Positions 4,661 to 63,992 of a stretch of 64,000 nucleotides of DNA are shown here, piece by piece. The notes beneath the pieces were generated by a model. It had not been told where the DNA came from. It saw only the letters and a list, made by a program, of their open reading frames with translations, and ran no database searches. The first letter of the stretch is position 1. Every line of letters begins with the position of its first letter. The translations under genes were made by a program, and so were the position numbers. Origin of the DNA: an uncultured Bacilli bacterium (GTDB taxonomy: Bacteria; Bacillota_I; Bacilli_A; RF39; UBA660); contig CAKPOS010000007.1 in NCBI GenBank assembly GCA_934176955.1, positions 15,328 to 79,327 of the forward strand, given 5' to 3'.

Positions 4661-6441
4661 TGTTTAAAAGTGAACTTGCTCCTAAAGGAATTGAATTCCG
4701 TTCGGCTGATTTTAGTATTAGTGATAAGTATGCTACTATTTTGACTGTAGTTTCTTATCCTAGATATATTTCACATGGTTATCTTGCTAATCTTACTAAT
4801 ATGTCTGGTGTTAAATTGATTATTAAACATATGCCTTTACCATTTTCTGTTTTATCTAAAATGTTAAATAAGGAAATTGCTGATTTGAAGGCTAAGTACC
4901 AACAAGAAAAAGATGTTACTATTCAAGAGAGAATTCGTCAAGATGTGGAAAGTTTGGAATATTATATTCAGCAATTTACAGCTAGTCAAACGAAAACTTT
5001 TGATTTTCAGATGCATTTAATGGTTACTGCTGATACTAAAGATCAATTGGATAGTAAGAAGTTAGCTTTACGTAACTATTTGGATGCTATGGAAATGAGA
5101 GCTATTCCTTTACGTTTTGAACAAGAAAGAGTTTTAAAATCAATGCTTCCTATTTTTGAAAGTCAAGAAATAGAGCAAAGAATAGGTACTCCTATGCCTT
5201 CTTCTACTATGGCTGCTATGTATCCTTTTGTTTTTGATAGTATTAAGGATGAGGGATTATCTACATTGCTTGGTGTTGATTTTTCTGGTGGTGTTGTATT
5301 ATTTAATCAATTTTTATATCAAGTTCGAAAGGAAAATAATAGAAATAATGCTAATATGATTATTTTAGGTACATCTGGTTCTGGTAAAAGTACTGCTGCT
5401 AAATTGATGCTTCGTAGTCATATTCGTAATGGATATCAGATTGTTGCTATTGATCCTGAAGGTGAAATTAGTGAGATGACGAATATGTATGGTGGACAAG
5501 TTATTGATTTAGGTAAGGGTGGAGCATATGGCTTAATTAATCCTTTAGATATTGTTGTTGATGCTGATGAAGATGATATTAGGAATGGTCTTGGATATAC
5601 AGTATTAAATAGAACTTTACAGAATTTAAAGGCTTTTATGAAATATTATTCTCCTGATATTGAAGAAGATGTTTTGAATATGTTTAGTGAAGTTGTTCAA
5701 GATACTTATGCTAGGTTTGGAATTAATTTTAATTCTGATTTTAGTCGATTTACTTCTAAGGATTTTCCTATTTTTGATGATGTTTATGCTACTGTTATTG
5801 GTAGACTTCGTTCTATGACGGAAAAGACTAGGGAAAGAGATATTATGGAGAGACTTGAGATTAAGATTCGTCCTTTTACTAGGGAATTAAAGTATTATTT
5901 TAATGGTCATACTAGTGTTGATTCTGATGGAGATTTCTTAGTCTTTAATATTAAAGAACTTATGAATAGTGATGCTAATATTAGAAATGCTTTATTATTT
6001 AATGTATTAAAGTATGCTTGGGGGTTATGTTTAAATCCTTCAGTTAATACGGTGTTGTCTGTAGATGAGGCTCATGTACTTTTAAGTGCTAAAAATACAC
6101 TTGGTGCAGAATTCTTGGCTCAAGTACAAAGACGTGCTAGAAAGTATAATACTGGTACAATTATTATTACTCAACAGCCTAGTGATTTTGTTGGTGAAGA
6201 TATTATTGTTCATGGTAAGGCTATTTTTGATAATGCTTCTTATTATTTAATTATGGGATTAAAGAAACAATCTGTTGATGATTTATCAATGTTAGTTGAT
6301 TTGAATGATAATGAACGTGAGGGAATAAAGAGATATAATCAAGGTGATGCGTTATTTGTATGTGGTAGTCGTAGAATGCAAATTAATGTTGTTGTTAGTG
6401 AAGATGAATTAGAGTCATTTGGTTCAGGTGGTGGATTCTAA
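4657..6441 (+). CDS. VirB4-like conjugative ATPase, NTPase segment
   Basis: Walker A GTSGSGKST and Walker B LSVDEAHVLL, with the IIITQQPSDF motif typical of VirB4/TraE-type T4SS ATPases. Confidence 0.85.
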   Translation: MMFKSELAPKGIEFRSADFSISDKYATILTVVSYPRYISHGYLANLTNMSGVKLIIKHMPLPFSVLSKMLNKEIADLKAKYQQEKDVTIQERIRQDVESLEYYIQQFTASQTKTFDFQMHLMVTADTKDQLDSKKLALRNYLDAMEMRAIPLRFEQERVLKSMLPIFESQEIEQRIGTPMPSSTMAAMYPFVFDSIKDEGLSTLLGVDFSGGVVLFNQFLYQVRKENNRNNANMIILGTSGSGKSTAAKLMLRSHIRNGYQIVAIDPEGEISEMTNMYGGQVIDLGKGGAYGLINPLDIVVDADEDDIRNGLGYTVLNRTLQNLKAFMKYYSPDIEEDVLNMFSEVVQDTYARFGINFNSDFSRFTSKDFPIFDDVYATVIGRLRSMTEKTRERDIMERLEIKIRPFTRELKYYFNGHTSVDSDGDFLVFNIKELMNSDANIRNALLFNVLKYAWGLCLNPSVNTVLSVDEAHVLLSAKNTLGAEFLAQVQRRARKYNTGTIIITQQPSDFVGEDIIVHGKAIFDNASYYLIMGLKKQSVDDLSMLVDLNDNEREGIKRYNQGDALFVCGSRRMQINVVVSEDELESFGSGGGF

Positions 6442-6461
6442 TATAAAGTGGTGATGTATTT

Positions 6462-8720
6462 ATGAATAATGGCAAAGGTAATGTTGTCTCTGATGTTGCA
6501 AAAGGATTTGTTAAAAAGAAAATTATATTGTTCTTGTTAGGCGGAAGTGGTGGTGCCGCCTTTTCTGCAATATTAATAGCTTTACCTCTTTTTATTGCAC
6601 TTTTAGTTGTTCTTGGTATTATTTCTGGTGGAGATTCATCGAATGGCTCTACCTGTATTAGTACTGAAACTGTTAATGAAGTTTGTAAATCAATTACAGT
6701 AAATGGCGAAACAATGTCTGTTGATGATTATGTTGCTCATGTTATTACGAATGAATTTGGTGGAGCTCCTGAAGAAACTTTAAAAGCTCAGGCTATTGCT
6801 GCTAGAAGTTATGGTGTTGCAGGTGCTAAAAAGGATAGTCAAGGAAATTGTGTTATTAGTGATACGTCAGAAGGATTTCAAACTTATGCAGCAACGGCAT
6901 CTGAAAGATCTATTCAGGCGGCAAAAGATACTAGTGGAATGGTTTTGTTGAATAAGGATGGTAATGTTGCAAGAGCTGAGTATTCTTCTAATTCTTTAAC
7001 GAAAGCTTATAGTTCTTTTGGTAATACGATTACAATGTCAGAAAGAAATTTAGAGATTCCACGAGATTGGTATTCTAAGAATAAAACTTGTAGTGATGAT
7101 TCTTTAAATAAAGCTAATAGTAATAAAGATGCTTATGGTAGGACTGTTTACGGTTGTGGTCATGGTCGTGGAATGGGGCAGATTGCTGCTAAGTATTTAG
7201 CGGAAGAAAAAAACTATACTTATAGTCAAATTATTGAATATTTTTATGGTAAAGATTCTCCTTATCAGTGGACTTTGGGTTCGTCTAATAGTTCCTCATC
7301 TAATTGTGGTAGTTCTTTAACAACTTTAGATCATTATACATTGGGACATGCTGGATTAAATGTTTTAAACAGGACTCTTTCTTCATCAGAAATTTCTGAT
7401 TTAAATAGTTATTTGGAACAAGAAATTGCTAAGGCTGGTCGTGGTAGTGGTGCTGCTGTTGCAGCAGCTGGTCAAGGGCTAGTTTATTGGTTAGAGCAAA
7501 AAAAATATTATTTACAGTATCGATGGGGAGGAGGCCATAGTGGATATGGTGATGGTAATTCTACTTTTATTGGTGCTAATCCTAATTGGGGAAGTGATAA
7601 GTATGGAGTAGATAATAATGGTGGAACTAATAGAAAGTATTTGGGAATGGATTGTTCAGGTTTTGTTTCTTGGGCAACTAGAACAGCTTGTAAGTCTTCC
7701 TTTGGGTCAGAAACTTCTGATAGTTGGGAAAGTTATGGTTCTAGCATATCTCTTTCTGAAGCTCAACCTGGTGATGTTATTGCTAGTGCATCTCATATTC
7801 AATTGATTGTAAAAAATAATGGAGATGGTTCGGTATATGTTGCTGAATCGGCTGGCGCTCCTACTGATGGTTTAGTTTTTTCTAAATTAACTTCTACTGG
7901 TTCTATGGTTGTTAGTATGCAAAAATGGTATGCTAATAATTGTGAAAATATTACTCCACCTGTTAATAATTCTGGGAGTTCTGGAAATTCCTCCTCTTCA
8001 TCATCTTCATCTGATGGTAGTTTGAAAAGTCAAATTAATAGTTATCTTTCAAGTAGTGTTGCTTCTGGTACTTGGTCTGTTTATGTTAAAAACTTAAAAA
8101 CAAATAAGGTTGTTGATATAAATGCAAGTAAGAAGATGAATTCTGCTAGTTCTATTAAACTATTTGTGTTGGCTTCTGCATATGATAAAGCAAAGAGTGG
8201 TAGTGTTTCTGAAGCAAGTTTTAAGGCAAATGCAAGAAAGATGATTGTTTATAGTGATAATTCTGCTACTAATAGTGTAATTGATACTATAGGAGGAATG
8301 AGTGTTGTTAATAGTTATGTTAGAAAAAATGGTTATTCTAGTACAACATTAAATCGTAAATTTGGTGGAAGTTATACAAGTAGTGGTGTTAATAATTATA
8401 CTAGTGCTAGAGATACTGGAGTTTTATTAGAAAAGATATATAATGGTTCATTAGTTTCTAGTAGTTATTCTAAAACGATGTTAGATTTCTTAAAAAATCA
8501 AAATACTAGAAGCAAAATACCTGCTGGAGTTTCTAGTGGTACTGTTGCTAATAAAACTGGTGAAATTCCTGATCAAGGAATAGAAAATGATTCTGCTATT
8601 GTTTATACTAGTGGAGCTGATTATGTTATTTCTGTAATGTCTAATACTTCTAATTATTCCAAAGCAATTACAGATATTGCTAAAATTTCAAATATTGTCT
8701 ATAAATATTATAATAAGTAG
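6462..8720 (+). CDS. Three-domain cell-wall hydrolase: SpoIID/LytB-like + NlpC/P60 + class-A beta-lactamase/DD-peptidase-like
   Basis: N-terminal TM. SpoIID/LytB signature YVAHVITNEFGGAPEETLKAQAIAARSY. NlpC/P60 catalytic Cys GMDCSGFVSWA with downstream His (ASHIQLIV). Poly-Ser linker. C-terminal serine-hydrolase triad of motifs SSIK, SDN and KTG. Confidence 0.75.
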   Translation: MNNGKGNVVSDVAKGFVKKKIILFLLGGSGGAAFSAILIALPLFIALLVVLGIISGGDSSNGSTCISTETVNEVCKSITVNGETMSVDDYVAHVITNEFGGAPEETLKAQAIAARSYGVAGAKKDSQGNCVISDTSEGFQTYAATASERSIQAAKDTSGMVLLNKDGNVARAEYSSNSLTKAYSSFGNTITMSERNLEIPRDWYSKNKTCSDDSLNKANSNKDAYGRTVYGCGHGRGMGQIAAKYLAEEKNYTYSQIIEYFYGKDSPYQWTLGSSNSSSSNCGSSLTTLDHYTLGHAGLNVLNRTLSSSEISDLNSYLEQEIAKAGRGSGAAVAAAGQGLVYWLEQKKYYLQYRWGGGHSGYGDGNSTFIGANPNWGSDKYGVDNNGGTNRKYLGMDCSGFVSWATRTACKSSFGSETSDSWESYGSSISLSEAQPGDVIASASHIQLIVKNNGDGSVYVAESAGAPTDGLVFSKLTSTGSMVVSMQKWYANNCENITPPVNNSGSSGNSSSSSSSSDGSLKSQINSYLSSSVASGTWSVYVKNLKTNKVVDINASKKMNSASSIKLFVLASAYDKAKSGSVSEASFKANARKMIVYSDNSATNSVIDTIGGMSVVNSYVRKNGYSSTTLNRKFGGSYTSSGVNNYTSARDTGVLLEKIYNGSLVSSSYSKTMLDFLKNQNTRSKIPAGVSSGTVANKTGEIPDQGIENDSAIVYTSGADYVISVMSNTSNYSKAITDIAKISNIVYKYYNK

Positions 8721-50584: not shown

Positions 50585-51505
50585 ATGGGTAATAAAACTG
50601 TGAAAAAAAAGCAATATGAAAGCTTCAATCTATATTATTTAAATCTGAGCAAAGTATATGAAATATCAATGATGATTAATAATATTATTGTATCTTCATA
50701 TGAAAGAGAAACTGGAAATAGTACAACTAAAAGGAAGTATAAAAAATCATCACTTGATGGACAAATTGATTCTAAATATTTGGCTAGCGTAAAATCAATA
50801 TTAGAAACAGGTAGTTCTAAAGAAAAAGTAACATCTTCAAAAGTTACAGAAAAATTAGATGTTAAAACGACAAAATCAATTTTATTGAAAATGATTAAAA
50901 ACAAATCTAAACAAGTGGAATTTTTAGATAAATGTGATGAGGGAGAATTAGTTTTGTTGAAAAATGTTAAATTATCAATTTTAGATAAAGATAATTTAAG
51001 ACAAATGTTACTTTTAAAGAGAGATGCCTTAAAAGGAATACAAGTTGAAGGAATTGAAATTAATAATATTATAAACTCTATGATAAATGACTATTCATAT
51101 ATTTTGTCCGGAAGTATTAAAGATGAATCTGGAACACAACAATTTATTATTAAAATACCATTTGAAATAGAAAATGAGTTTGAAAACAATTATAGTGTAG
51201 ATGATATTATTCTAGGTAATGTTTCTGTAATTGGTATATATAAAAATAAAAATACAATTGAGGACATAACTAACAATACATTAAATTATTTTTCAAGAGC
51301 AGATTTCATAAATAGTAATGAAAGTAAATATATAAAAAGTGGTAAACAAAATACACAAGACACTAATAATTTTGATGGTATAAAAGAGGCTCATTACATA
51401 GATGTAATAGGAATTATTCAAGAAATAAAATTTGATGATGATGTTAAAGTTGGATTATGGGCTAGATTTAAAGCATTTTTGGAGAAAAAGAAAAATGAGA
51501 AGTAA
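50585..51505 (+). CDS. Hypothetical protein, partner of the ClpB-like AAA+ gene (possible DolA-like)
   Basis: 306 aa with no recognisable catalytic motif. Its 3' end overlaps the start of the AAA+ gene by 11 nt, implying co-translation. Confidence 0.35.
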   Translation: MGNKTVKKKQYESFNLYYLNLSKVYEISMMINNIIVSSYERETGNSTTKRKYKKSSLDGQIDSKYLASVKSILETGSSKEKVTSSKVTEKLDVKTTKSILLKMIKNKSKQVEFLDKCDEGELVLLKNVKLSILDKDNLRQMLLLKRDALKGIQVEGIEINNIINSMINDYSYILSGSIKDESGTQQFIIKIPFEIENEFENNYSVDDIILGNVSVIGIYKNKNTIEDITNNTLNYFSRADFINSNESKYIKSGKQNTQDTNNFDGIKEAHYIDVIGIIQEIKFDDDVKVGLWARFKAFLEKKKNEK

Positions 51506-52970
51506 ACTTTATTATTATAGAGATAAAAATGAATTTGATAGATTTTATAATGAGAGCGACAAAAAAATTGTTCCATTTGAATTTGTAGAAACAAAAAAAA
51601 TAATAGAAGAAGAATCTGGCTATATTATAGATATAACTAATATGGTATCATTTACTGATTCTAATCAATCAAATATCTATTCTGCCATAATTAATTTAAA
51701 GGATTTGGATGAAACAAATCAAATAATAATAAATAAAGATTGGTCAGAAAAAGCTTTGTATTTATTTCCAACAATTTTTGAACAAGCAGTTCCAATCTTT
51801 GATGAAGAAATTACTAAAGAAATTTGCTTAGAAAGTTTTAAAAGAACTCTTTGGTATTATAATGAATCTCAATATGAAAGTTTGCTAAAACATATCGAAG
51901 AAAACAAAATAATAATAACAAATTTTGCAACTTTACAAAAATATAATAATTATGACTATGAAATTTTGCTAGACTTAACAAGTACAATTGATAGTATAAA
52001 AGGAAGTCAGCAATTAATCTTTTTATTAGAACAATTTTTTGTCACTGCCAATACAAACATAAAAGCAATTATAAACTCCAATAGACTTGATGAAATAAAA
52101 GAAACATTGAGGCTCACATTTAAAGAATATAAAAACATTTCAGATTTATATTCGAATATTACTGATAAAAATAATAAATCTTCAGAAATAAAAGAACCAG
52201 TAAGAATTATTGATTTAAATAAAAAGGAAATTTCACAATTGTTTAATAATATAAGTAATAGCTTGATAGGACACGTGGAATTTAAAAATTATTTAATATC
52301 CCAATTAGAAAAGTTTGTAGTTTTAAATAAAATTGGAGAGCGCAAAGTGTTTTCAATGTTTTTATTAGGAAAACCAGGATTAGGTAAAACAGAAATTGGC
52401 AAAATAATTAGTAAATCGTTAAATGAGGATTCTAACGTTATAAAAATAAATTTTGGGAATTACTCAAGCCAAGATGCTCTTAATAGTTTAATTGGCAGTC
52501 CGGCAGGATATATAGGATGTGAAGGTGGAGAATTAGGGAAAAAAGTTAATTCAAATAAAGTTGGAGTTATAATTTGCGATGAATTTGAAAAAGCGGATTC
52601 AGAAATAAAAAACTTTTTTCTCGAATTATTAGAAGATGGAAAATTTACAGATTCAATGAGCAGGGAATATGATATAAATGGTTATATAGTAATATTTACA
52701 TCAAATATAAAAAATGAAAATGAATTTAAAAGTAAGATATCTCCTGAATTTGAGTCGAGAGTAAACTTAATTTGTGAATTTACACCACTAACATATGAAG
52801 AAAAAGCACAATATGTAAGATCCCAAATAAATAGATGTTTAGAAAAAATGAAAAAGAATGATATAAATATTAATTTCAAAGCAAGTGATGTAGATGTTAT
52901 TTTTAGTGATACAGATGATTTGAGAGAGATAAAAAACAGAATTTTAAATAAAATATCTGAATTACTTTAA
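51495..52970 (+). CDS. AAA+ ATPase with ClpA/ClpB D2-type (AAA_2) module and unknown ~280-aa N-terminal domain (possible DolB-like)
   Basis: ATG at 51495 (MRSKLYYY). LIGHVEFKNYL..., Walker A FLLGKPGLGKTEIGK, LIGSPAGYIGCEGGELG, Walker B VIICDEFEKADSEIKNFFLELLEDGKFTDS and IVIFTSN reproduce the ClpB D2 motif order. Confidence 0.75.
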   Translation: MRSKLYYYRDKNEFDRFYNESDKKIVPFEFVETKKIIEEESGYIIDITNMVSFTDSNQSNIYSAIINLKDLDETNQIIINKDWSEKALYLFPTIFEQAVPIFDEEITKEICLESFKRTLWYYNESQYESLLKHIEENKIIITNFATLQKYNNYDYEILLDLTSTIDSIKGSQQLIFLLEQFFVTANTNIKAIINSNRLDEIKETLRLTFKEYKNISDLYSNITDKNNKSSEIKEPVRIIDLNKKEISQLFNNISNSLIGHVEFKNYLISQLEKFVVLNKIGERKVFSMFLLGKPGLGKTEIGKIISKSLNEDSNVIKINFGNYSSQDALNSLIGSPAGYIGCEGGELGKKVNSNKVGVIICDEFEKADSEIKNFFLELLEDGKFTDSMSREYDINGYIVIFTSNIKNENEFKSKISPEFESRVNLICEFTPLTYEEKAQYVRSQINRCLEKMKKNDININFKASDVDVIFSDTDDLREIKNRILNKISELL

Positions 52971-54108: not shown

Positions 54109-55041
54109 TTAAATACTTAGATTTAAATTATCCATAGTATTTTTTACATCAGTTAGATTATTTGGAAACATATGAGCATATGTGTCTAATGTTTCTTTAG
54201 TACTAGCATGTCCTAAATATTTTGATACAGTTGTTACTGGTTGACCAGTATTTATTAGTAAAGAAGCACAACTATGTCTAAAAGAGTGTAGTGGAATTCT
54301 TCGGATATCTGCATTTTTAGCAATTCTACCATTAATTCTAGACATCATTTTGAAGGTTAATGGTTCATGTTCACCGAAAATAAACCATTTGTCATTGAAG
54401 CCATAGTACTTCTTTTTTTCATTGTATAAATTTACTAAATCATTATATAAAACTTCAGTAAGAGGTAAAGTCCTAATACTTTTAGATGTTTTAGGTGGAG
54501 TTAGTTCATAATATTTTTGACTATCCTTAACACTATTAGCTTGTTTAGTAATAGATACTAACTTATTATTCCAATCTATATCAGACCATTGAAGTCCGCG
54601 ACATTCACCACGACGTAATCCATAATAATATAACATTTCAAACATTGTTTTATCATTTAAACTAGTAGTTCCTGTTATATATTTTTGAAATTCTTCAAAA
54701 GTGTAAACATCGTTTTCTTTTTTCATTTCATTAGGGTCTTTAAAAAACTCTATTTTTTTATAAAATTTCATTAGATTGATATCATACATTTTCATTCCCC
54801 AATTAAGAATAATCTTTAAGAACTTTTGAACATCATTTCTAGTAGAGCATTTAATGGGTTTATTCCATAAATCTTGTTGGAACTTATGATATAGATTTCC
54901 ATCCATATCTTTTAATTTAACATTTTCAAAATCAGCAAAATACCTTCTTCTTTTTAAATATGTTTCCATTGTTCTTCTTCGAACCTTATTTTTTTGAGAT
55001 TCAATATATTGGTCAGTTAGAGTACCAAATGTCATATCCAT
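54109..55041 (-). CDS. int: Tyrosine integrase lacking the N-terminal arm-binding domain (E2)
   Basis: YYGLRRGEC, HSFRHSCASLLI, LGHASTKETLDTYAHM. Met1 aligns with about residue 64 of the E1 integrase (both then share ENVKLKD). Confidence 0.85.
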   Translation of the reverse strand: MDMTFGTLTDQYIESQKNKVRRRTMETYLKRRRYFADFENVKLKDMDGNLYHKFQQDLWNKPIKCSTRNDVQKFLKIILNWGMKMYDINLMKFYKKIEFFKDPNEMKKENDVYTFEEFQKYITGTTSLNDKTMFEMLYYYGLRRGECRGLQWSDIDWNNKLVSITKQANSVKDSQKYYELTPPKTSKSIRTLPLTEVLYNDLVNLYNEKKKYYGFNDKWFIFGEHEPLTFKMMSRINGRIAKNADIRRIPLHSFRHSCASLLINTGQPVTTVSKYLGHASTKETLDTYAHMFPNNLTDVKNTMDNLNLSI

Positions 55042-55821
55042 ATCTCCACCAATTTCTTCTCTAAATAGATTGTGAATCCTTTAGATTTGATAAATTCATT
55101 ATAATCATCTTGAAGTAGAGTATAAGATGCATTACCATCTTTTTGTTTCCAAAATTGATTTGAATTTAGAAATTTACCTTTAACAGTTTCATAAATATTT
55201 TTACCATTCTTATCTTTCTTTTGAATAGGTACTAATTTCTTTTCTCCTTTTTTATTAGTTATTTTGTGTTTTACTTGATGACCATTTTCATCTAGTTCAA
55301 ACACCTTTCTTTTAACTTCATTAACTACTGGAGTAAAATATATATACATATGTGGTGTAGATTCATCAAGATGTTATATTTTCACTACCTACATATTCTT
55401 TAATAAAATTTAAACTTTCGTCAAAGAACATTTTTATTTCAGCTGGTAAATTATGATTTTCATCTATAATTACATGTCTAATTGGTTTACCAGCATTATC
55501 TCCAGTTTTATAAACTTCTCCAGTATCTTTAAATTCCATACCATAATGTTCAAAAAATTCTTGACCACTTGATATAATTAATCCATTTAAAACCTTTGTG
55601 CTTTTTTTATTTGGATTATAGTTTATATTATTAGAATAAAGATAATCAAATGTTGAACTTGCTAGAGTAGGTCCATCATAATTTATTAATTCTATATTAT
55701 ATGGAGTTCTAGTACTATCATATTTACCAGAACCTTTTCTTTCCTTTAATTCTTTATCAAGTCCACCAATATCTGATGCTTTAAACTTTTCTAATCGTAG
55801 TGCTTGTTTTTCTGAGTACAT
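55032..55821 (-). pseudogene. mob: MobV-family relaxase, frameshifted and 3'-truncated
   Basis: N-terminal ORF (55366-55821) has RLEKFKASDIGGLDKELKER...YNIEL. The metal motif HLDESTPHM is encoded at 55347-55373 in a different frame, continuing into ORF 55032-55349. Total is only ~256 aa. Confidence 0.75.
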
Positions 55822-56075: not shown

Positions 56076-57026
56076 TTATTCATTATTTTCGGAAGGTTCT
56101 TCATAAGAACAATGCCATAATCTTTCGTTAGCAGTTCTTTTACTTGTTATATGAAGACCTTCTTTTTCAAGCAATTGTAGGTTTCTTTGAATTAAACCTC
56201 CAAGTTGTGTTGGTGTTAATAAAATATTTGTTTTAGATAAGATATCTGATATAGTGTAATCAAAATCTTTCTTAGCAACTGCATATTTTATAAATAGAAG
56301 TAGATTATAATCGGTTTCATCATCAGTATTTTCATCTATAACACTAAATGTTTGATTTTCATTTCTTTTCAAATTTAATTCTAATCTACTAAAATCCCTA
56401 CCTTTATAATCTAAAGTTAGTTTATTACAATTACTTTTTGACTCTTTTAATTTCATAATTCCAGATGCATCAGCAGTTAGTCCGACACTACCCATAATTC
56501 CATTACTTTTATTTAAGTGATGTGTAACAAATAATGTGCAGTTATATTTTCTACATATTTCTTTAAACTTTTTAAATACAACATTATTTATTTCTTGATA
56601 ATCATTTTGATTATAGTTACTATCAAATTTAATGTCTTTAAACATATCAATTATTACGAATAAAGGTTCTTTATCAAAGGTTAATTCATGAATGTCTCTT
56701 TCAATATCTCTGATATAAAAATCTGGAATATCATCTATGTCTATAATGTGAAGTTTATCTACATTAGGTTTCAAATTCATTAATTTAAATCGGTCTTATA
56801 ATTGATTTATATCGCCCTCTGTGGTAATATATAAGACATGAGAGGGATTTACTTTGAATCCTAAAAAATCTTCTCCAGTAGTAAGAGAGAAGGCAAGTTG
56901 CTGAGCAAACATTGACTTGCCAACCTTAGGATGAGATACAAGTAGATAAACTCCATTTGATATCATTAGGTTTTCGACGATGATATCTTTTTTTATGCTT
57001 TTATTTACTTCGTTTATTTGTTTCAA
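56076..57026 (-). pseudogene. RepA-like RecA-fold ATPase interrupted by one in-frame TAA (E2)
   Basis: ORFs 56796-57026 (Walker A HPKVGKS) and 56076-56780 are in the same frame, separated only by the TAA at 56796-56798 (...DINQL*DRFKLMNLKP...). Collinear with the intact E1 gene 44797-45786. Confidence 0.8.
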
Positions 57027-57667: not shown

Positions 57668-57738
57668 TATAGACAAATTGATAAAAAAGTGCTAAAATTA
57701 AATTGTGAAGGAAGAAAAGGGAAGAAAGAAGTGATTAA

Positions 57739-58260
57739 ATGAACTCAGAAGAACTTAAGAATTTAATTGAATCTGCAAGAGTAGAAAAAGGCATTTCTCA
57801 AAGAGAACTAGCTAAATTAACTGGTATAAGTAGAAGTACATTAAATGATTTAATTAATGGAAAAATAAAAAAAGTAGATATTGATGATCTACGAAAGATT
57901 GCTGAAACATTAGATATGTCTTTACAAAAATTATTAAAGGTTGCAGGTTATGATGAAATGCTTTTCTATTTTTCTAAAGATAAATATGCAAATAAATCTA
58001 GTAAAGATTTAAAAGAAATGATTAAAAATTATGAAGAATCTCAAAGAAATTTATTAGATTTCGATACTGAAAAAAGAAAAAAAGTAAGTGATGCAAGACA
58101 AAAACTATTTTATACAATAGAACACTTACAAATAATGAAAGATAATAAGGATAGCTTATATACAATAGATAAAGCAATTGAAGATATACAATATGCCTTT
58201 GATGAATTAGAATTTGCAGAACATAAATACGATTATAGTAAATTGCCAAAGAAAAACTAA
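57739..58260 (+). CDS. XRE-family HTH regulator (E2 repressor candidate)
   Basis: HTH ARVEKGISQRELAKLTGISRSTLNDLINGKIKK. Confidence 0.8.
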   Translation: MNSEELKNLIESARVEKGISQRELAKLTGISRSTLNDLINGKIKKVDIDDLRKIAETLDMSLQKLLKVAGYDEMLFYFSKDKYANKSSKDLKEMIKNYEESQRNLLDFDTEKRKKVSDARQKLFYTIEHLQIMKDNKDSLYTIDKAIEDIQYAFDELEFAEHKYDYSKLPKKN

Positions 58261-58270
58261 AGGAGATGAG

Positions 58271-58852
58271 ATGATGAATGTTATCAAATTTAATTTAGAT
58301 GATCTTGAAAAACAAGAAACAGGTTTTTCATATTATTTATTAGGGAGAAGTTATGATTTAGAAGAAAACGATGCTACACAGGATTACAATAAAGCATTAG
58401 AATATTATTTAAAAGGTTTTAATATTGATTATCCATTATGCACTTATTCTTTAGGAATTTCTTATGAACTAGGATTAGGAGAATTATTAGAAATAGATAA
58501 AAATAAAGCAAAAGAACTTTTGAATAAGGCTTATCCTAAAATAATTGAATTAATAAATAATCCTGATATATCTGATGTAGAAAGAATTTATGCTAAATTT
58601 GTGTTAGGTGCTTATTACTATTTTGGACTAGGAAATATTGAAAGAGATTATAATAAAGCATTTAAAACTATTAAAGAATGTGCAGATAATGGACATATTG
58701 CTGCAATTTATGATTTAGGTGCTAATTTTTACTATAATGGAAATGGCACTGAAGTTAATTATGAATTAGCAGATTATTATTTAAATATTGCTAAAGAAAA
58801 TGGTTTAAAAAGAGCAATAGACTTATGTAACTCTAGACATAAAACTAAATAA
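58271..58852 (+). CDS. Sel1-like (SLR/TPR) repeat protein
   Basis: ATG at 58271 after AAGGAG. Repeated A..YY.KG......A.Y.LG..Y..G.G units (e.g. YNKALEYYLKGFNIDYPLCTYSLGISYELGLG). Confidence 0.65.
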   Translation: MMNVIKFNLDDLEKQETGFSYYLLGRSYDLEENDATQDYNKALEYYLKGFNIDYPLCTYSLGISYELGLGELLEIDKNKAKELLNKAYPKIIELINNPDISDVERIYAKFVLGAYYYFGLGNIERDYNKAFKTIKECADNGHIAAIYDLGANFYYNGNGTEVNYELADYYLNIAKENGLKRAIDLCNSRHKTK

Positions 58853-58867
58853 AATGGAGGTCAAATA

Positions 58868-59404
58868 ATGCCTAAAATAAATTTAAATAATCTTGAAATT
58901 AGAACTTGTAATAGTAACGATGTTAAAGATATTTATAATATTCAAGAAATAGTAATTAATAACTTTAAAAAAGAAGAAAAAGGGTATTTTTTACCTTTTA
59001 CTGAAGAATGGTATTTAAGAATTGTAAATAATCCTGATAAAGACGGTGAAATATATGGAGCATTTTGTAATAATAAAATGATTGCATGGATATTTTTATC
59101 AGTATCAACACGAATGGAACAAATTAAAAGTTTTATTCCTGATATTGATGGAAAATGTGCTGACATTGATGGAGTTATAGTTTTACCTGAATATAGGGGA
59201 AATGCGCTTCAAAAAATACTTGTAAATTATTTAGAAAGTAAAGCAAAAGAAAAAGGTATTACAAATATAGTTGCAGAAGTTACTTTTGGAAATGATTTCA
59301 GTTTAAATAATTTGCAATCTTTAGGTTATGAAATAAAGACTTGGTATCAAAAAGATGAAAATATAAAAAGACACATTTTGCTAAAGAAGTTAAAAAATGA
59401 TTAA
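58868..59404 (+). CDS. GNAT-family N-acetyltransferase
   Basis: Motif A GVIVLPEYRGNALQKILVNYLESKAKEKG. Confidence 0.75.
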   Translation: MPKINLNNLEIRTCNSNDVKDIYNIQEIVINNFKKEEKGYFLPFTEEWYLRIVNNPDKDGEIYGAFCNNKMIAWIFLSVSTRMEQIKSFIPDIDGKCADIDGVIVLPEYRGNALQKILVNYLESKAKEKGITNIVAEVTFGNDFSLNNLQSLGYEIKTWYQKDENIKRHILLKKLKND

Positions 59405-60314
59405 AATAAACGAGATAAATAGTAATATTGAAAATTTAAAGAAATCTTTACCAAGTTTAGAAATTGATAGTGTATTTTTAGAGCAAGGTGGAAAAATAGA
59501 AAAATTGTTTTATAAAGATGAGAGTTTACATGAACTAAGAAGTTGTGCTAAATTGCTTGTAGCAATGGCTATTGGTATAGCAATTGATAAAGAGATGATA
59601 ACACTAGACACACCAATTTATCCTTCTATTAAAAATATTGTTAATGTTACAAATAAAAGTAATTTAGAAAAAATAAAGCAATGGACTGTAAGAAATCTAT
59701 TAACTCATACAACAGGATATGAAAAACAAATGATGTCGGAAAACTATATAAAAAATATTGATAAAAATAAATTATTAGATTATGCTCTTAACTATGATAT
59801 TCCATACAATGTTGATACTAGGTTTGCTTACAATAATGTTGAACCATTTATTTTGTCAGTATTTTTTCAAGAATCATTTAATATTAATTTAACAGATTTT
59901 ATTAAAGAAAATATATTTGATAAATTAGAAATTGTTGATTATAAATGGGAAAATTATGGAAAATACTGTCCGGCTTCAACTGGACTTTATCTTAATCATA
60001 GTGATTTTCATAAGATTGGTAAATTACTATTAAATGGTGGAAAATATAATAATATCCAAGTTGTTCCTGAAAAGTGGATAAATCAAATGTGTATATTACA
60101 ACTTGAAACACCTTCAGCATATAAACCAGAAAGATTGTTACCTAAAATTGGTGTTGGCTATTATACTTTTATTTCAAGAGATGGCTATGTATTTAGAGAT
60201 GGATCTAATGGTCAATATATTATAATTAATAAAGAAAAAAATCTTTTAATAACTATTATGTCTACAGAAAAAGATATGAAAAATGTAACTGAAATTTTAA
60301 GAAATATGATATAA
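59397..60314 (+). CDS. Beta-lactamase-related serine hydrolase (class C/PBP4*-like)
   Basis: SxxK (SCAK) near the N-terminus, YxN (YNN), LLTHTTGY. Confidence 0.6.
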   Translation: MIKINEINSNIENLKKSLPSLEIDSVFLEQGGKIEKLFYKDESLHELRSCAKLLVAMAIGIAIDKEMITLDTPIYPSIKNIVNVTNKSNLEKIKQWTVRNLLTHTTGYEKQMMSENYIKNIDKNKLLDYALNYDIPYNVDTRFAYNNVEPFILSVFFQESFNINLTDFIKENIFDKLEIVDYKWENYGKYCPASTGLYLNHSDFHKIGKLLLNGGKYNNIQVVPEKWINQMCILQLETPSAYKPERLLPKIGVGYYTFISRDGYVFRDGSNGQYIIINKEKNLLITIMSTEKDMKNVTEILRNMI

Positions 60315-60355
60315 ACTACATGTAAGTTTATCATTTTGCATATGGGAGGTGTAAT

Positions 60356-61099
60356 ATGAGAATTGATTTTCATTGTCATACAAAAGCAGTAAAAAGCGGT
60401 GAAAATAAAACGAGGAATATAAATGCTACAGATTTTAAAGAAGCAATAAAAGATGCTAGAGTTAAAATGGTTGCTATTACAAATCATAATTCTTTTGATA
60501 AAAACCAATTTGATGAATTTTATAAGAAAGTTAACAATGATTTTATTCTATTACCAGGTATAGAATTAGATACAATTGGTATTAAGAATGAAAAAGGTCA
60601 TATTGTTATAGTGTATGATGATAAAGATTTAAACACTTTTGATAATAAAGTTAGTAAATTATTAGAAGGAACTAACCCGGATACTTTCACAATTGATATA
60701 GAAAAGTTGATCGAATTTATAAATAATATTAATTGTATAGTATTAGCTCATTATTTTAAACCCGATGCTTTAGATATTGAATCAATAAATTACATAAAAG
60801 AAAAAATAACAGATAATTTTAGATTGTTTTATGAACCAAGTAATTATAGAACATTAGGCATAATGATAAATCACAATTTTAGGGCTTTAAAAGGAACAGA
60901 TATTGTTGATTGGAAAGACTATGGGAAGCAAGAATTTGCTAACATTAAATTAGATATTGATTCATATAAACAATTTATTAAATTTTTAAAGAAAGATAAA
61001 ACGGTAATAGAAAGTCTTTTAAATAAACAAACAAAGTATAGTGTTGACATCGGATATAAAGTGATGGTCATGAATTTGTTGATTTATATGATGACGTGA
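60356..61099 (+). CDS. PHP-domain phosphoesterase/nuclease (N-terminal half of a Ppl/TrlF-like protein)
   Basis: MRIDFHCHTKAV...MVAITNHNSFD and LAHYF follow the PHP His/Asp motif order. Its last ~14 codons look out of frame relative to the downstream ATPase. Confidence 0.7.
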   Translation: MRIDFHCHTKAVKSGENKTRNINATDFKEAIKDARVKMVAITNHNSFDKNQFDEFYKKVNNDFILLPGIELDTIGIKNEKGHIVIVYDDKDLNTFDNKVSKLLEGTNPDTFTIDIEKLIEFINNINCIVLAHYFKPDALDIESINYIKEKITDNFRLFYEPSNYRTLGIMINHNFRALKGTDIVDWKDYGKQEFANIKLDIDSYKQFIKFLKKDKTVIESLLNKQTKYSVDIGYKVMVMNLLIYMMT

Positions 61100-62457
61100 A
61101 TGTGTTTTTTGGTACAAAAGGAACTGGAAAATCTGTCAGTTTAGAAAAAATTGAAAAATATTTCAAAGATAATGGAAAGAAAACAAGTTCTTATTCTCCA
61201 AATGATAATAAAGATAAACTTGATCAAAGATTAAAAATATTAGATGATGAAAGAAAAATGTCTTCTTATGATAGGAATAATTATTCTTATGAGTTTTCAG
61301 ATATTAATGAATGGACAGAACCAGATGTTACTCAGTTTATTGATTATATAAATTATGTAAAATATAAGGATCAAAATGCTAATAAAAAGCGAATGAAAAT
61401 AGTTGAGATAAGAAATGTGTTAGGATATAATAATAAAATATTACAAACCAGCAAACAGGACTTTGAAAACTTAAATACGGTAATGAATTTATTGAATAAT
61501 ATTGATATAAAAAAATATATCGTCCAAGAAAAAGAAGGACAATTGATAAAATTAACTAATGAATTATTGGAAAGCATAAAAGAAGCATATTCTTATAATT
61601 TTGATGAAAAAACATCAATTAAACTTACTAATAATGCCGTAAGTAAAATTAAAACAATTGTCGAGAAGAAAACCGAAACAAAAACTATTCCAAATGAAAC
61701 TGGATTTATCAATTTTGCAAAAAAGCATTTTTCCTTAGAAATTAGTATTAACAAAATATTAGATGGCTTTAAATTTGAATATGTATCTAATCCTGAGTAT
61801 ATAGGAAAACTTGAAGAAGAAAAATTATTATATAAAAAGACCATGATAACTATGCTAAATGATTCTAGTAAATCAGATGATGGATTTAAAGGTATAAATA
61901 ATTTAAAAGAAATAAAAGGAATTCTAAAAGCTATAAAAAATGATGTTTATAATGACAATCTTGCTGAGGATATTAGCAACTATAAAGAAAAATATGAGCA
62001 GAATTTATCGTTAGATGATTTTATAGGGATTACAAAGAAATTTGTTGTAGATGGTAAAGACTATAAGCCTTCAACCGGAGAAGCAACTATGATTGTTCTT
62101 AACGATGCACTTGATGATAAATATGACATTTATATTTTAGATGAGCCAGAAAAAAGTTTGGGAAACAATTATGTTAGTGACGTTTTGGTTTCAAGATTAA
62201 ACGATTTAGCAAAAATGAAAAAAGTCGTAGTTGTAGCAACTCACAATGCTAATGTTGCAGTTAGAACCATGCCATATAGATCAATTTTGAAAGTCTATGA
62301 TAATGGCGAATATAAAACATTTATAGGCAATCCATATGTTAATAAATTAGTAAATATTAAAGATGAAAATGACTATAAAGATTGGAAAGAAGAGAGTATT
62401 AGAATACTAGAGGGTGGAAAAGAAGCTTTTGAGGAAAGAATTGATATTTATGCTTAA
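61096..62457 (+). CDS. ABC/SMC-like ATPase (C-terminal half of a Ppl/TrlF-like protein)
   Basis: Walker A GTKGTGKS only 6 codons after the nominal GTG start. Long helical insert. PSTGE (signature-like), Walker B IYILDEPEKSLG, and ATHN (H-loop). Confidence 0.7.
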   Translation: MNVFFGTKGTGKSVSLEKIEKYFKDNGKKTSSYSPNDNKDKLDQRLKILDDERKMSSYDRNNYSYEFSDINEWTEPDVTQFIDYINYVKYKDQNANKKRMKIVEIRNVLGYNNKILQTSKQDFENLNTVMNLLNNIDIKKYIVQEKEGQLIKLTNELLESIKEAYSYNFDEKTSIKLTNNAVSKIKTIVEKKTETKTIPNETGFINFAKKHFSLEISINKILDGFKFEYVSNPEYIGKLEEEKLLYKKTMITMLNDSSKSDDGFKGINNLKEIKGILKAIKNDVYNDNLAEDISNYKEKYEQNLSLDDFIGITKKFVVDGKDYKPSTGEATMIVLNDALDDKYDIYILDEPEKSLGNNYVSDVLVSRLNDLAKMKKVVVVATHNANVAVRTMPYRSILKVYDNGEYKTFIGNPYVNKLVNIKDENDYKDWKEESIRILEGGKEAFEERIDIYA

Positions 62458-62821
62458 TGAAAGAATTAATCTAATAGATGCAACTCTTACAAGAAATGAT
62501 ATTGAACAAATAGTTATTAGGTTTAATATTGATAGTAATAACTATGACTTAAACTTACAGAGTAATAATTCTGAAGACATAAAAAAGGTGTTTTTAGAAT
62601 TATCAAGGATAATTAGAATTACACCTATTAAAATAGAACTAAAGATAAATGAAAATATTGATGAAAAAAAAGATAATTTATTTATAGAAACAGCATATGA
62701 GTATATTAATCAGTTAAATGATGAAATGCTTGAATTGGAAAATGATGATGATTTGAAGACCATTAGAAATTTTATTAATAATGGCAATGAAAATAAAGGA
62801 GAGGACAATAATGAAAAATAA
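62450..62821 (+). CDS. Small acidic protein coupled to the ATPase
   Basis: ATG at 62450 overlaps the ATPase stop by 8 nt. 123 aa, Asp/Glu/Asn-rich C-terminus. No motif recognised. Confidence 0.45.
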   Translation: MLNERINLIDATLTRNDIEQIVIRFNIDSNNYDLNLQSNNSEDIKKVFLELSRIIRITPIKIELKINENIDEKKDNLFIETAYEYINQLNDEMLELENDDDLKTIRNFINNGNENKGEDNNEK

Positions 62822-63365
62822 TTATTTACTAATACATGGTAGTTTTGGAAGCCCATTTGTGAATTGGTTTCCATATTTGAGAAGAGAAATTGAAAACAAA
62901 AATTTAGAAGTATATACTCCAGATTTTCCAACAGGAGTTGGATATCAAAATTATGTAAATTGGTCAAAAATATTGAAATGCTATCTAGATGCAGGAATAA
63001 TAAATGAAAATACAACTATATTTGCTCATTCGATTGCACCTGTATTTATTTGCAAGTTCTTAATTGAAAACAAAGTAAAAGTTAAAAGATTAGTATTTGT
63101 ATGTGGATTTAACAATTATTTAGGAATAAATGAAGAATACGATGCGGTAAATGAAAGTATGTTTTTAGATAATTTAGGAGATGTAAAAAAATATTGTTCT
63201 GATATTGTTTGTTATTATTCTGATAATGATCCTTATGTTAAATATGATGGGGAAAAAGAATTTGCTGATGCCATAACAAATAATCAAATAATAATAAAAG
63301 ATGGTGGACATTTAAATTCTGAATCTGGATACTCAGAATTTGCGGATTTATTAAAATATTTATAA
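62811..63365 (+). CDS. YdeN/RBBP9-like alpha/beta serine hydrolase
   Basis: ATG at 62811. LLIHGSFGSPFVNWF, nucleophile elbow FAHSIA, DGGHLN. Confidence 0.6.
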   Translation: MKNNYLLIHGSFGSPFVNWFPYLRREIENKNLEVYTPDFPTGVGYQNYVNWSKILKCYLDAGIINENTTIFAHSIAPVFICKFLIENKVKVKRLVFVCGFNNYLGINEEYDAVNESMFLDNLGDVKKYCSDIVCYYSDNDPYVKYDGEKEFADAITNNQIIIKDGGHLNSESGYSEFADLLKYL

Positions 63366-63382
63366 TCTGAAAGGAATAAAAT

Positions 63383-63730
63383 ATGAATAGAGATTTTGCT
63401 GAACAGTGGCTTAATGATTTAAAAAAATATTGGTTTAATAAAGATATTGAAAGTGCAGTTTCATTATTTAACAAAACAACATTCTATCAAGAAACACCAT
63501 TCATGAATCCGTATACTACTATAGAAGAAATTAATCAAGAATGGCAACATATAAAAAATGAGAATATACAAGATATAGAAATAAATATATTAGCAATAGA
63601 TGAAAATATATTAATTGCACATTAGATATTAAAACAAAATGATAAAGATTATGATGGAATTTATGAAATAAAATTTAATAATAATTCAGAATGTATATAT
63701 TTTAAAAGTTGGGAAATGGTAAATGAATAA
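63383..63730 (+). pseudogene. NTF2/SnoaL-like small protein with an in-frame TAG
   Basis: The 80-aa ORF stops at TAG 63623-63625, but the same frame continues for 34 more codons (ILKQNDKDYDGIYEIKFNNNSECIYFKSWEMVNE) to TAA 63728-63730, completing a typical NTF2-like beta-sheet. Confidence 0.6.
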
Positions 63731-63736
63731 GAAAAA

Positions 63737-63805
63737 ATGACACAGTGACACTATAAATGCATGTGGGGGACTCTCATACAATGTGTCACTGTGTCATTTT
63801 TGTTT
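63737..63805 (+). terminator. Conserved long hairpin H (E2 copy), terminator-like
   Basis: Perfect 15-bp arms ATGACACAGTGACAC / GTGTCACTGTGTCAT, 31-nt loop, then TTTTGTTTT. Confidence 0.6.
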
Positions 63806-63807
63806 TC

Positions 63808-63829
63808 CAGATACCAAATCTAGATACTA
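63808..63829 (+). repeat. E2 arm-type repeats, right end (CAGATACCA + TAGATACTA)
   Basis: Same 9-mer family and orientation as at 54044-54085. Confidence 0.65.
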
Positions 63830-63945
63830 ATTGCAAAAAATAAAGTTATTTTAATAAACTTTAGTAAATTTAACAAAATTAAAAAGCCTTATAATATAAG
63901 ACTTTAACTAATTATTAAATTGTTACGAACTGATATTAAGATTTT

Positions 63946-63992
63946 CCCCTGAAATTCTCCTCGAGAGAGGGGAATACTTTTGTTTATAAGGG
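63946..63992 (+). repeat. att copy C (right end of E2)
   Basis: CCCCTGAAAT + ATTCTCCTC-GAGA-GAGGGGAAT hairpin + ACTTTTGTTTATAAGG. The flanking GGATTTTTAA matches the left end of E2. Confidence 0.8.

Follow-up and report, generated by a model that had tools for sequence, protein, structure and literature searches.

Two overlapping reading frames in a 64,000-nt stretch of DNA from an uncultured Bacilli bacterium of the gut (28% GC; hereafter the window), one nuclease-like and the other ATPase-like, raise the question of whether they are two genes or the halves of a single one, and what they would do together with the small acidic ORF that follows them. The answer reached here is that both frames belong to one large gene interrupted by the deletion of a single nucleotide, and that the locus is, with a probability that we put at roughly 0.6, the decayed version of a compact module of two genes, probably one of anti-phage or anti-plasmid defence.

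One large gene in two reading frames

According to the ORF list and its translations, ORF1 (60356-61099, 247 aa) has the N-terminus MRIDFHCHT and, further on, ITNHN, and thus carries both PHP motifs (IDFHCHT and ITNHN) named in the preliminary description. ORF2 (61096-62457) starts with GTG and has GTKGTGKS at codons 6-13, a P-loop as close behind the nominal start as had been noted, and its frame is indeed open back to the TAA at 61057-61059, the residues upstream of the GTG being SDGHEFVDLYDDVNVFFGTKGTGKS. The alignment with four 97%-identical, syntenic metagenomic relatives (L001-L004) locates the break: the relatives read AAAGATGATGG where the window has AAAG-TGATGG (its own letters being AAAGTGATGG), so that GAT GAT has become G-T GAT. 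Across the same point, the intact homologue P0001, an uninterrupted protein of 700 aa that is 99% identical to the fused conceptual protein, reads ...GYKDDGHEF.... The relatives' alignment therefore bears out the earlier proposal of a 1-nt frameshift splitting a PHP-ATPase of ~700 aa, whereas the slip had been placed within TATAAAG and the A is in fact lost at the edge of that site, between 61061 and 61062.

The fused form is also the norm elsewhere. Asked whether homologues are fused or encoded by two genes, the searches returned nearly exclusively single proteins of 700-726 aa among the best-scoring 120 of 600 homologues with E <= 0.001. The fused 700-aa conceptual protein aligns through residues 2-699 with positions 3-669 of the 674 in the PADLOC profile PDC-M49A (91 bits, E=1e-26), and because this end-to-end match is joined by the 99%-identical uninterrupted homologue, the split is not a product of chance. 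ORF1 and ORF2 are thereby confirmed, at the level of sequence, as two halves of one gene, and the out-of-frame tail of ORF1 is, to judge from the homologues, a by-product of the frameshift rather than conserved coding sequence. In the annotation, both ORFs are to be merged as one frameshifted gene, and the small ORF is to stay as a real gene (Table 1). An alternative code (TGA = Trp) was rejected for the window, in which TGA terminates 9 of the 53 long ORFs; two Mollicute homologues (L054 and L055) contain in-frame TGA codons.

The break falls inside the predicted N-terminal beta-sheet of the ABC ATPase, and the window copy would therefore be either a pseudogene or a base-call error. Since, without the A, the P-loop and the remaining ATPase are no longer joined to the PHP domain and the first ATPase strand, the large protein of the window allele is most likely non-functional. 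The small gene is untouched by the lesion.

Table 1. Features of the locus, in positions of the window.
Feature	Position	Strand	Remarks
Shine-Dalgarno-like GGGAGG	60344..60349	+	6 nt 5' of the large-gene ATG; direct sequence reading
5' part of the disrupted large gene	60356..61061	+	Codons 1-235 and first G of codon 236; PHP metallo-phosphoesterase domain (~residues 1-190), linker, first ABC ATPase beta-strand
Frameshift site	61061..61062	+	One A absent between these bases; DNA alignment with L001-L004
ORF1 out-of-frame tail	61062..61099	+	..VMVMNLLIYMMT then TGA; in no homologue
3' part of the large gene, -1 frame	61060..62457	+	Residues 236-700, SMC/Rad50-like ABC ATPase
Walker A GTKGTGKS	61111-61134	+	Invariant in A1
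Coiled-coil insert, predicted long helices	~61432-61764	+	Helices span about residues 360-470
Signature-like STGE	62071-62082	+	Invariant in A1
Walker B ILDEPE	62134-62151	+	Invariant in A1
H-loop His	62242-62244	+	THNAN invariant in A1
Small acidic partner gene	62450..62821	+	123 aa, pI 4.4; ATG 62450, 8-nt overlap with the ATPase stop (ATGCTTAA)
Ser_hydrolase (PF06821) neighbour gene	62812..63365	+	Pfam E=2e-13; likely ATG 62812, 10-nt overlap with the small-gene stop

Predicted domains and family placement

The calls of invariant residues are based on an alignment of 22 sequences (A1). At the N-terminus, the candidate metal ligands D4, H6, H8, H44, E70, H82, H132 and D182 are all present in the window and occupy invariant columns in A1, and a Foldseek search places this part close to the PHP domain of Pol III alpha (4gx9, 2hnh; probability 1.00, rmsd 3.6 A over ~178 columns), so that the ligand series HxH, H, E, H, H, D is found on a PHP barrel. 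The final His that forms the canonical ninth PHP ligand was not found. Pfam PHP gave no match to the window half, and PF02811 was matched on one homologue; PDC-M49A and the NCBIfam TrlF model both match the N-terminal half. Alignment and structural comparison together thus assign the N-terminus to the PHP metallo-nuclease fold of the Pol III alpha type, from which we infer a nuclease activity.

The C-terminal half has the characteristics of an ABC ATPase of the SMC/Rad50 type, namely a Walker A motif, a signature-like motif, Walker B, an H-loop, strands ahead of the P-loop and a coiled-coil insert, followed by a conserved C-terminal motif, LEGGKEAFEER-DIY. A profile search of the PDB matched this half to AriA and ABC transporters, and Foldseek matched it to the retron-IA ATPase, the RecN head, Rad50, AriA, JetC and cohesin heads. 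The break lies at residue 235/236 and the alignment with AriA begins before it, at profile position 227, and in the AF2 model of the large protein (pLDDT 83.9) the strands 227-231, 241-245 and 248-253 precede the P-loop, in agreement with the earlier claim that the upstream residues are needed for an ABC N-terminus. This half is therefore best described, on alignments and the model, as a predicted SMC/Rad50/AriA-like ABC ATPase with a short coiled-coil insert.

A PHP nuclease and an NTPase in one polypeptide are found in the repaired or ancestral 700-aa protein and not in the frameshifted window allele. By its sequence, the large protein belongs within the Ppl/TrlF/PDC-M49A superfamily, and the label 'Ppl/TrlF-like' used in the preliminary description is sound for architecture and superfamily; it does not hold for membership. 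ORF1 and ORF2 score 47.7 and 45.7 bits against NCBIfam TrlF (NF045780), far below its curated cut-off of 350 bits, and the Ppl model (PADLOC PDLC02208) gave no match to the fused window protein at E <= 1. Two homologues are matched weakly by the Ppl model, and only over its C-terminal ~110 positions (E=6e-5 and 2.6e-5), and TrlF-annotated proteins of E. coli and Listeria reach 123-140 bits against it. The best match in the library is the PADLOC candidate PDC-M49A (PDLC04678, PDLC04679, PDLC04680), which agrees with the window family in length (674-681 positions) and is covered from one end to the other, with weak scores in a library that has no curated cut-off (91 bits for the window protein, 100-127 bits for five other members); the member on the S. 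aureus plasmid gave no PDC-M49A match at E <= 1e-4. As the scores are only 91-127 bits, the window family would be a sister of the modelled PDC-M49A. The term 'PDC-M49' was absent from the literature searched.

Among the systems that have been characterised or named, 'ppl' is said to have been named as a defence gene by Gao et al. in 2020. Like the window family, it joins a PHP nuclease at the N-terminus to an ABC-type NTPase at the C-terminus in one chain and lies in defence contexts, but it is a single-gene system with a model of 894 positions, whereas the present family has ~700 aa and an overlapping partner in 51 of 55 loci. Ppl has been described as a ssDNA 3'-5' exonuclease that is inhibited by NTP and activated at 3'-OH ends (PMC12904381), and this published mechanism is a plausible template for the window family. 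The name TrlF comes from the Photorhabdus temperature-restriction locus trlG-trlF-trlR (bioRxiv 10.1101/2020.06.02.129163). TrlF proteins likewise combine PHP and an ABC ATPase, are often plasmid-borne, and have the C-terminal block from Walker B to EGGxEAFxxRxxxY in common with the window family (hhalign probability 97%, E. coli plasmid TrlF); their model is longer (944 positions vs 700 aa), their partners are trlG, trlR or none, and the TrlF-annotated relatives examined have 867-873 aa and no overlapping small ORF. The haloarchaeal, CRISPR-supervised Wukong, a PHP-ATPase DNase that degrades DNA in vitro and whose immunity needs both active sites (bioRxiv 10.1101/2024.12.27.630466), resembles the window family, compared by description only, in its N-terminal PHP exonuclease and C-terminal ATPase, and differs in being a single protein of ~1026 aa with no partner described. 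Mre11-Rad50/SbcCD, AriA of PARIS, LmuB of Lamassu and the PtuA-like ATPase of retron-IA also unite ABC heads interrupted by a coiled coil with a nuclease, often with small accessory subunits, and ATPases of this group gave the top Foldseek and profile matches to the C-terminal half; here, in contrast, the coiled coil is short and a PHP nuclease is fused in cis, where the others have Mre11, Toprim or HNH as a protein of its own.

The acidic partner and its genomic surroundings

That a 123-aa acidic ORF overlaps the ATPase stop by 8 nt, as described earlier, is correct (D+E 27 vs K+R 15), and its suggested status as a possible uncharacterised partner has gained in substance. Of the 55 loci examined, 51 have a homologous acidic ORF, ~100 aa long, that overlaps the ATPase stop; on three plasmids, RefSeq lists the partner as an overlapping CDS in its own right, and profile searches returned 104 matches in one case and 459 stand-alone clusters in another, net negative charge being found in 98% of 245 family members. 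The AF2 model of the partner (pLDDT 86) has a beta3-alpha-beta-alpha2 fold, for which the best Foldseek match in the PDB had an E of only 0.18. Pfam and PADLOC scans of 24 members returned nothing consistent, PADLOC models, including PDC-M49, matched 0 of 27 small partner proteins, no fusion to other domains was seen among the best 150 of the 459 clusters, and the literature searched yielded no account of a small protein accompanying a PHP-ATPase. The recurrence of the ORF at the ATPase stop shows that it encodes a genuine conserved partner, previously undescribed.

A genome scan with the single protein recovered only two distant loci, and an alignment-based scan was needed to find the remainder. 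The pair occurs in Bacillota, Saccharibacteria, Actinomycetota, Pseudomonadota, Verrucomicrobiota, Bacteroidota, one archaeal MAG and three plasmids, and intact alleles are available from L001-L004 and from the S. aureus, Photobacterium and Clostridium plasmids, the operon of L001 spanning 6001-8467 and the S. aureus pair being carried by pCOL52-A5. Phage genomes yielded only two partial Listeria TrlF-like matches. No third conserved gene was found among ~45 loci, the largest cluster in an all-against-all BLAST of 610 flanking ORFs comprising 7 loci; the Ser_hydrolase gene is syntenic in L001-L004 and L092-L094 and not kept at other loci, and is thus linked only within the window's clade and lies outside the conserved module. 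Genes on the flanks match AbiLi, AriA, a type III REase, PbeA and mad3; a type II RM pair and a NucC-like gene adjoin the Coprococcus locus, an Eco57I-like MTase and a PstI-family REase lie on the flanks in the Photobacterium plasmid, IS257 and a DUF4238 gene flank the S. aureus locus, and plasmid copies adjoin Fst toxins and ParA. As qualitative evidence, the flanks are variable, mobile and rich in defence genes.

Decay of the large gene recurs. A sister lineage carries a different frameshift (552 + 122 aa) on 19 contigs, and the large gene is also disrupted in L027, L036 and L057. Such repeated, independent inactivation with the small gene kept hints at a fitness cost or autoimmunity, and bears on the partner's mode of action.

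Rival readings and a possible mechanism

The missing A might be a sequencing or assembly artefact, in which case the 700-aa gene would be intact in the organism and its two-gene module functional. A single-base lesion in a gene whose catalytic motifs are all intact, which shows just 15 codon differences from its intact relatives (7 synonymous, 8 non-synonymous), and whose partner protein is identical to those of L001, L003 and L004, is what such an error would leave behind. However, the lesion site, GATGAT, is not a homopolymer, where indel errors concentrate, and natural changes of this kind are at hand: the independent frameshift in the sister lineage is one, and an indel at 60235 (A7 vs A6), where three relatives are truncated and the beta-lactamase-like ORF of the window is longer and more complete, means that natural indel polymorphism exists in this block. 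Two further suspicious pairs of overlapping ORFs in the window were checked (38253/38918 and 50585/51432), and 38253/38918 turned out to be separate genes for an rRNA methyltransferase and a sigma factor, which also speaks against an artefact. We consider an artefact possible and distinctly the less probable account. Far less credible is a programmed -1 ribosomal frameshift that would yield one protein, or an arrangement in which the PHP protein and the ATPase are two functional polypeptides. ORF2 does lie in the -1 frame relative to ORF1, the frames overlapping over 61060-61099, but GGA TAT AAA GTG offers no X XXY YYZ slippery heptamer, and the 97%-identical relatives, like nearly all of the best 120 of 600 homologues, have a single frame; the programmed event was rejected on these grounds. 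For two polypeptides, the GTG at 61096 lacks a Shine-Dalgarno sequence and leaves five residues before a P-loop that three strands precede in the model and the AriA alignment.

The function of the intact module could also be of another kind, either that of a nuclease for DNA repair or recombination, as a miniature counterpart of SbcCD/Mre11-Rad50, or that of a TA-like addiction module of mobile elements with the acidic protein as antitoxin. The likeness of the fold to Rad50, RecN and SMC heads, the Fst toxins and ParA beside the plasmid copies, and the repeated decay of the large gene beside a small gene that is kept, as expected of a costly or toxic large protein, would fit. This reading is nevertheless unlikely in view of the patchy distribution, which looks horizontally transferred, of flanks that differ in almost every genome and contain no linked repair genes, of neighbours that include restriction-modification, AbiL, PARIS-like and other defence genes, and of closest characterised relatives (Ppl, Wukong) that are defence nucleases; moreover, TA-like behaviour and defence are not mutually exclusive.

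For the preferred reading, a decayed defence module, the following mechanism can be proposed. Gene 1 normally encodes a protein of ~700 aa, with a predicted PHP metal-dependent nuclease and an SMC/Rad50-like ABC ATPase with a short coiled-coil insert, and the translationally coupled gene 2 a very acidic alpha/beta protein of ~100 aa. With Ppl, Wukong and Mre11-Rad50/SbcCD as models, the ATPase heads may dimerise on ATP and engage DNA, probably DNA ends, and the dimerised heads would then permit the PHP nuclease fused to them to degrade the DNA of an invader. The acidic protein may be a stoichiometric regulatory subunit that holds the nuclease off until infection or acts as a sensor, a role that is a guess because the partner has no recognisable fold or motif. 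More tentatively, and with rather more doubt than belief, the module may be regarded as a distinct, widespread and unnamed two-component immune nuclease with the partner, which has no known fold relative, as its switch; in such a system the partner might act as an inhibitor, either by mimicking DNA or by binding the heads, until infection releases or titrates it.

PHP-ATPase nucleases such as Ppl and Wukong have only recently been recognised as a class of immune effectors, and the compact branch described here travels with a translationally coupled acidic protein that has no database name. The coupled pair is therefore a clean, testable two-gene unit with intact alleles. If the partner is indeed such a switch, this branch of the Ppl superfamily would be gated by its partner rather than by NTP, as reported for Ppl.

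Reading frame of the large gene

The window (G+C 28%) derives from an uncultured gut 'Bacilli bacterium' whose related MAGs are labelled Bacilli, Tenericutes or Mollicutes; its closest housekeeping match is MAG SUG1421 (95% amino-acid identity), and it uses the standard bacterial genetic code, 9 of its 53 long ORFs ending in TGA. When the sequence was re-read, all coordinates and motifs given in the preliminary description for ORF1, ORF2 and the 123-aa ORF were correct, and its overall reading was essentially right, the finding being real. In the window sequence, GGGAGG lies 6 nt 5' of the ORF1 ATG, no Shine-Dalgarno sequence precedes the GTG start of ORF2, and the ORF2 frame has no stop back as far as the TAA at 61057-61059.

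Features of the large gene, its partner and their surroundings (window positions)
Feature	Position	Strand	Remarks
Tyrosine integrase	54112-55041	-	upstream of block
Mob_Pre fragment	55369-55821	-	151 aa; upstream of block
AAA_25 protein	56079-56780	-	upstream of block
Beta-lactamase-like gene	59397-60314		A-run 60232-60238
ORF1	60356-61099	+	247 aa; N-terminus MRIDFHCHT; ITNHN inside
ORF2	61096-62457	+	GTG start; GTKGTGKS = codons 6-13
Small ORF	62450-62821	+	ATG 62450; 123 aa; 27 D+E vs 15 K+R; 8-nt overlap with ATPase stop
Ser_hydrolase (PF06821)	62812-63365	+	probable start ATG 62812, preceded by AGGAGAGG

Read through ORF1 as far as ...GYK and then in the ORF2 frame, the gene encodes 700 aa, and this product aligns end to end with PDC-M49A, a PADLOC candidate defence model of 674 positions (E=1e-26). 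Among 5.8 billion proteins searched was an intact 700-aa homologue (P0001) at 99% identity and 100% query coverage, and among the best 120 of 600 homologues with E<=0.001 almost all are 700-726 aa long. The gene for P0001 lies on four metagenomic contigs (L001-L004) that are syntenic with the window, match it at ~97% identity over 57786-63951 and share with it the gene order Sel1-repeat gene, GNAT, beta-lactamase-like gene, 700-aa gene, small gene and Ser_hydrolase. Against AAAG-TGATGG in the window, the four contigs have AAAGATGATGG: the window lacks one A between 61061 and 61062. Across this site the intact protein reads GYKDDGHEF. P0001, its contigs and PDC-M49A thus bear out the proposal that ORF1 and ORF2 are one gene of ~700 aa split by a 1-nt frameshift. 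Programmed frameshifting was rejected because the relatives are in frame and the site, which is also not a homopolymer, holds no slippery heptamer.

From position 227 onward the family profile aligns with the N-terminal part of AriA, the PARIS ATPase, and in the AF2 model (pLDDT 83.9) the P-loop is preceded by strands 227-231, 241-245 and 248-253. The frameshift at residue 235/236 therefore bisects the ABC N-terminal sheet and is structurally destructive. Both lines of evidence agree with the earlier assignment of the residues upstream of ORF2 to the ABC N-terminus.

Domains and family placement of the large protein

The large protein fuses a PHP nuclease and an SMC-like ATPase in one chain. 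Residues 1 to ~190 form a PHP metallo-phosphoesterase domain, in which D4, H6, H8, H44, E70, H82, H132 and D182 are invariant in a 22-sequence alignment (A1) and whose Foldseek match is the PHP domain of DNA polymerase III alpha (probability 1.00). Residues ~227 to 700 form an SMC/Rad50-type ABC ATPase, its head interrupted by long helices (~360-470), with Walker A, a signature-like STGE, Walker B ILDEPE and the H-loop THNAN in A1, and Foldseek matches including the retron-IA ATPase, the RecN head, Rad50, AriA, JetC and cohesin.

The label 'Ppl/TrlF-like' used in the preliminary description holds for the superfamily but not for either family: NCBIfam TrlF, whose cut-off is 350 bits, gives 47.7 bits for ORF1 and 45.7 for ORF2, the PADLOC Ppl model (894 positions) leaves the window protein unmatched and reaches two of its homologues at the C-terminus only, and the best model match, PDC-M49A, scores just 91-127 bits for family members. 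These scores make the family most likely a compact sister branch in the Ppl/TrlF/PDC-M49A superfamily; by their definitions, neither Ppl nor TrlF includes it. By contrast, TrlF-annotated plasmid proteins of E. coli (873 aa) and Listeria (867 aa) match Ppl at 123-140 bits, and their genes, unlike those of the window family, lack an overlapping acidic partner. The E. coli protein and the window family have in common a block from Walker B to the C-terminal EGGxEAFxxRxxxY (hhalign probability 97%). This motif, as (L/M)EGGxEAFxxRxxxY, lies at the C-terminus of A1 (window ~62395-62454) and in the TrlF-annotated E. coli plasmid proteins (L091 3219-5840); since it is kept there without an overlapping downstream gene, coding for the partner's RBS is an insufficient explanation.

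The acidic partner and the genomic setting

Scanning 185,579 species genomes with the family alignment yielded ~50 full-length loci in Bacillota, Saccharibacteria, Actinomycetota (Collinsella, Eggerthella), Pseudomonadota (Variovorax, Burkholderiales), Verrucomicrobiota, a Nitrospinales MAG, Bacteroidota, Mollicutes and a Nitrososphaeraceae archaeon. An overlapping acidic ORF accompanies the large gene in 51 of 55 loci examined; it encodes ~94-130 aa, and its start lies 4-26 nt inside the 3' end of the large gene. The exceptions are three disrupted loci (L027, L036, L057) and a Mollicute locus (L055). The partner is obligate and co-translated. Partner ORFs are alignable to that of the window, with F48 and Y85 invariant, K45, L89 and E92 nearly so, and the recurring motif LK-VF...LY-V-EYI--LN-E. 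When 1.84 billion representatives were searched with a partner profile, 459 clusters matched, and the best 150 are all stand-alone proteins of ~100 aa. Net charge is negative in 98% of the family (n=245), and the median pI is 4.5. The small ORF, suspected earlier to be an uncharacterised partner, is on these grounds a conserved partner of the large gene. AF2 models it with confidence (pLDDT 86; beta-beta-beta-alpha-beta-alpha-alpha). Nothing in the PDB resembles this model (best E 0.18), and Pfam and PADLOC scans of family members matched no family consistently. RefSeq treats the two genes as separate, overlapping CDSs on S. aureus, Photobacterium damselae and Clostridium sp. plasmids, under the product names 'hypothetical', 'AAA family ATPase' or 'histidinol phosphatase'.

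The large-gene homologues of Mesoplasma grammopterae (L054) and Mycoplasma sp. (L055) carry 3 and 11 in-frame TGA codons, as code 4 predicts, and the module therefore extends to code-4 organisms; in L054 a partner-like ORF lies downstream.

No third conserved gene was found among ~45 loci, so the unit consists of two genes. It behaves in genomes as an accessory, horizontally mobile module: its flanks are nearly always different and abound in genes for defence and mobility, such as a type II MTase, a REase and a NucC-like nuclease in Coprococcus, an Eco57I-like MTase and a PstI-family REase on the Photobacterium plasmid, IS257, a DUF4238 gene and Fst toxins in S. aureus, and tyrosine recombinases on the Clostridium plasmid. 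PADLOC matches in 147 flanking ORFs included AbiLi (1e-99), AriA, PbeA, type III REase and mad3. The Ser_hydrolase shares 10 nt with the end of the small gene and so lengthens the chain of overlapping genes; this linkage is retained in a sister lineage (L092-L094) and absent from other phyla.

Homology to L001-L003 begins at ~57786, just past a promoter-like site (57670-57698), and stops at 63951, directly before a terminator-like hairpin (63954-63975); the block from the HTH gene to the 115-aa gene therefore behaves as one cassette with flanks varying by genome. Beyond it the relatives carry a D12 methyltransferase and a NOV_C gene. The adjoining integrase, Mob_Pre fragment and AAA_25 gene look like a small integrated mobilisable element, and RecG occupies their place in L001 and L002. 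Further upstream (50585-52970), two overlapping same-strand ORFs, one of 306 aa without family or PDB match and one of 512 aa with a TTG start and a ClpC-D2-like AAA_2 domain at residues 263-452 only, could be another split gene or two-gene unit.

Status of the window allele and meaning of the module

The window copy is a broken or mis-sequenced allele, ordinary in itself. We put the probability that the missing A is a real mutation at about 65-70%. A sequencing artefact, the less likely alternative, would fit a single-base lesion in a gene with every motif intact and only 15 codon differences from intact relatives (7 synonymous, 8 non-synonymous), but the base is missing from a non-homopolymer context, and the other coding indel in the block (A7 versus A6, 60235) leaves the window with the longer beta-lactamase-like ORF: 305 aa, against 283 aa in three relatives, which are frameshifted and truncated where the window allele is intact. 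Also against an artefact, the large gene has decayed independently elsewhere. The sister lineage (L092 3001-5466; 88% identity), with an AbiEii gene upstream, has, on 19 contigs of which several stem from separate metagenome assemblies, a frameshift of its own (552 + 122 aa) beside an intact 123-aa partner and Ser_hydrolase; the homologue P0011 has an apparent internal deletion, and the large gene is disrupted also in L027, L036 and L057.

Ppl is an ssDNA 3'-5' exonuclease inhibited by NTPs bound to both domains and activated at 3'-OH ends (PMC12904381), and Wukong is a PHP-ATPase DNase requiring both active sites (bioRxiv 10.1101/2024.12.27.630466). By analogy with these and with Mre11-Rad50, the ATPase heads would engage DNA with ATP, probably at ends, and would thereby permit the PHP nuclease to degrade the DNA of an invader. 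More speculatively, the partner may be an infection sensor, or it may block the enzyme by mimicking DNA or by binding the heads; that the large gene is lost time and again but the small one kept is consistent with a costly large protein. The module probably represents a widespread two-gene variant of PHP-ATPase defence nucleases, so far without a name and with a partner fold without known relative, and because intact alleles exist, it is directly testable.
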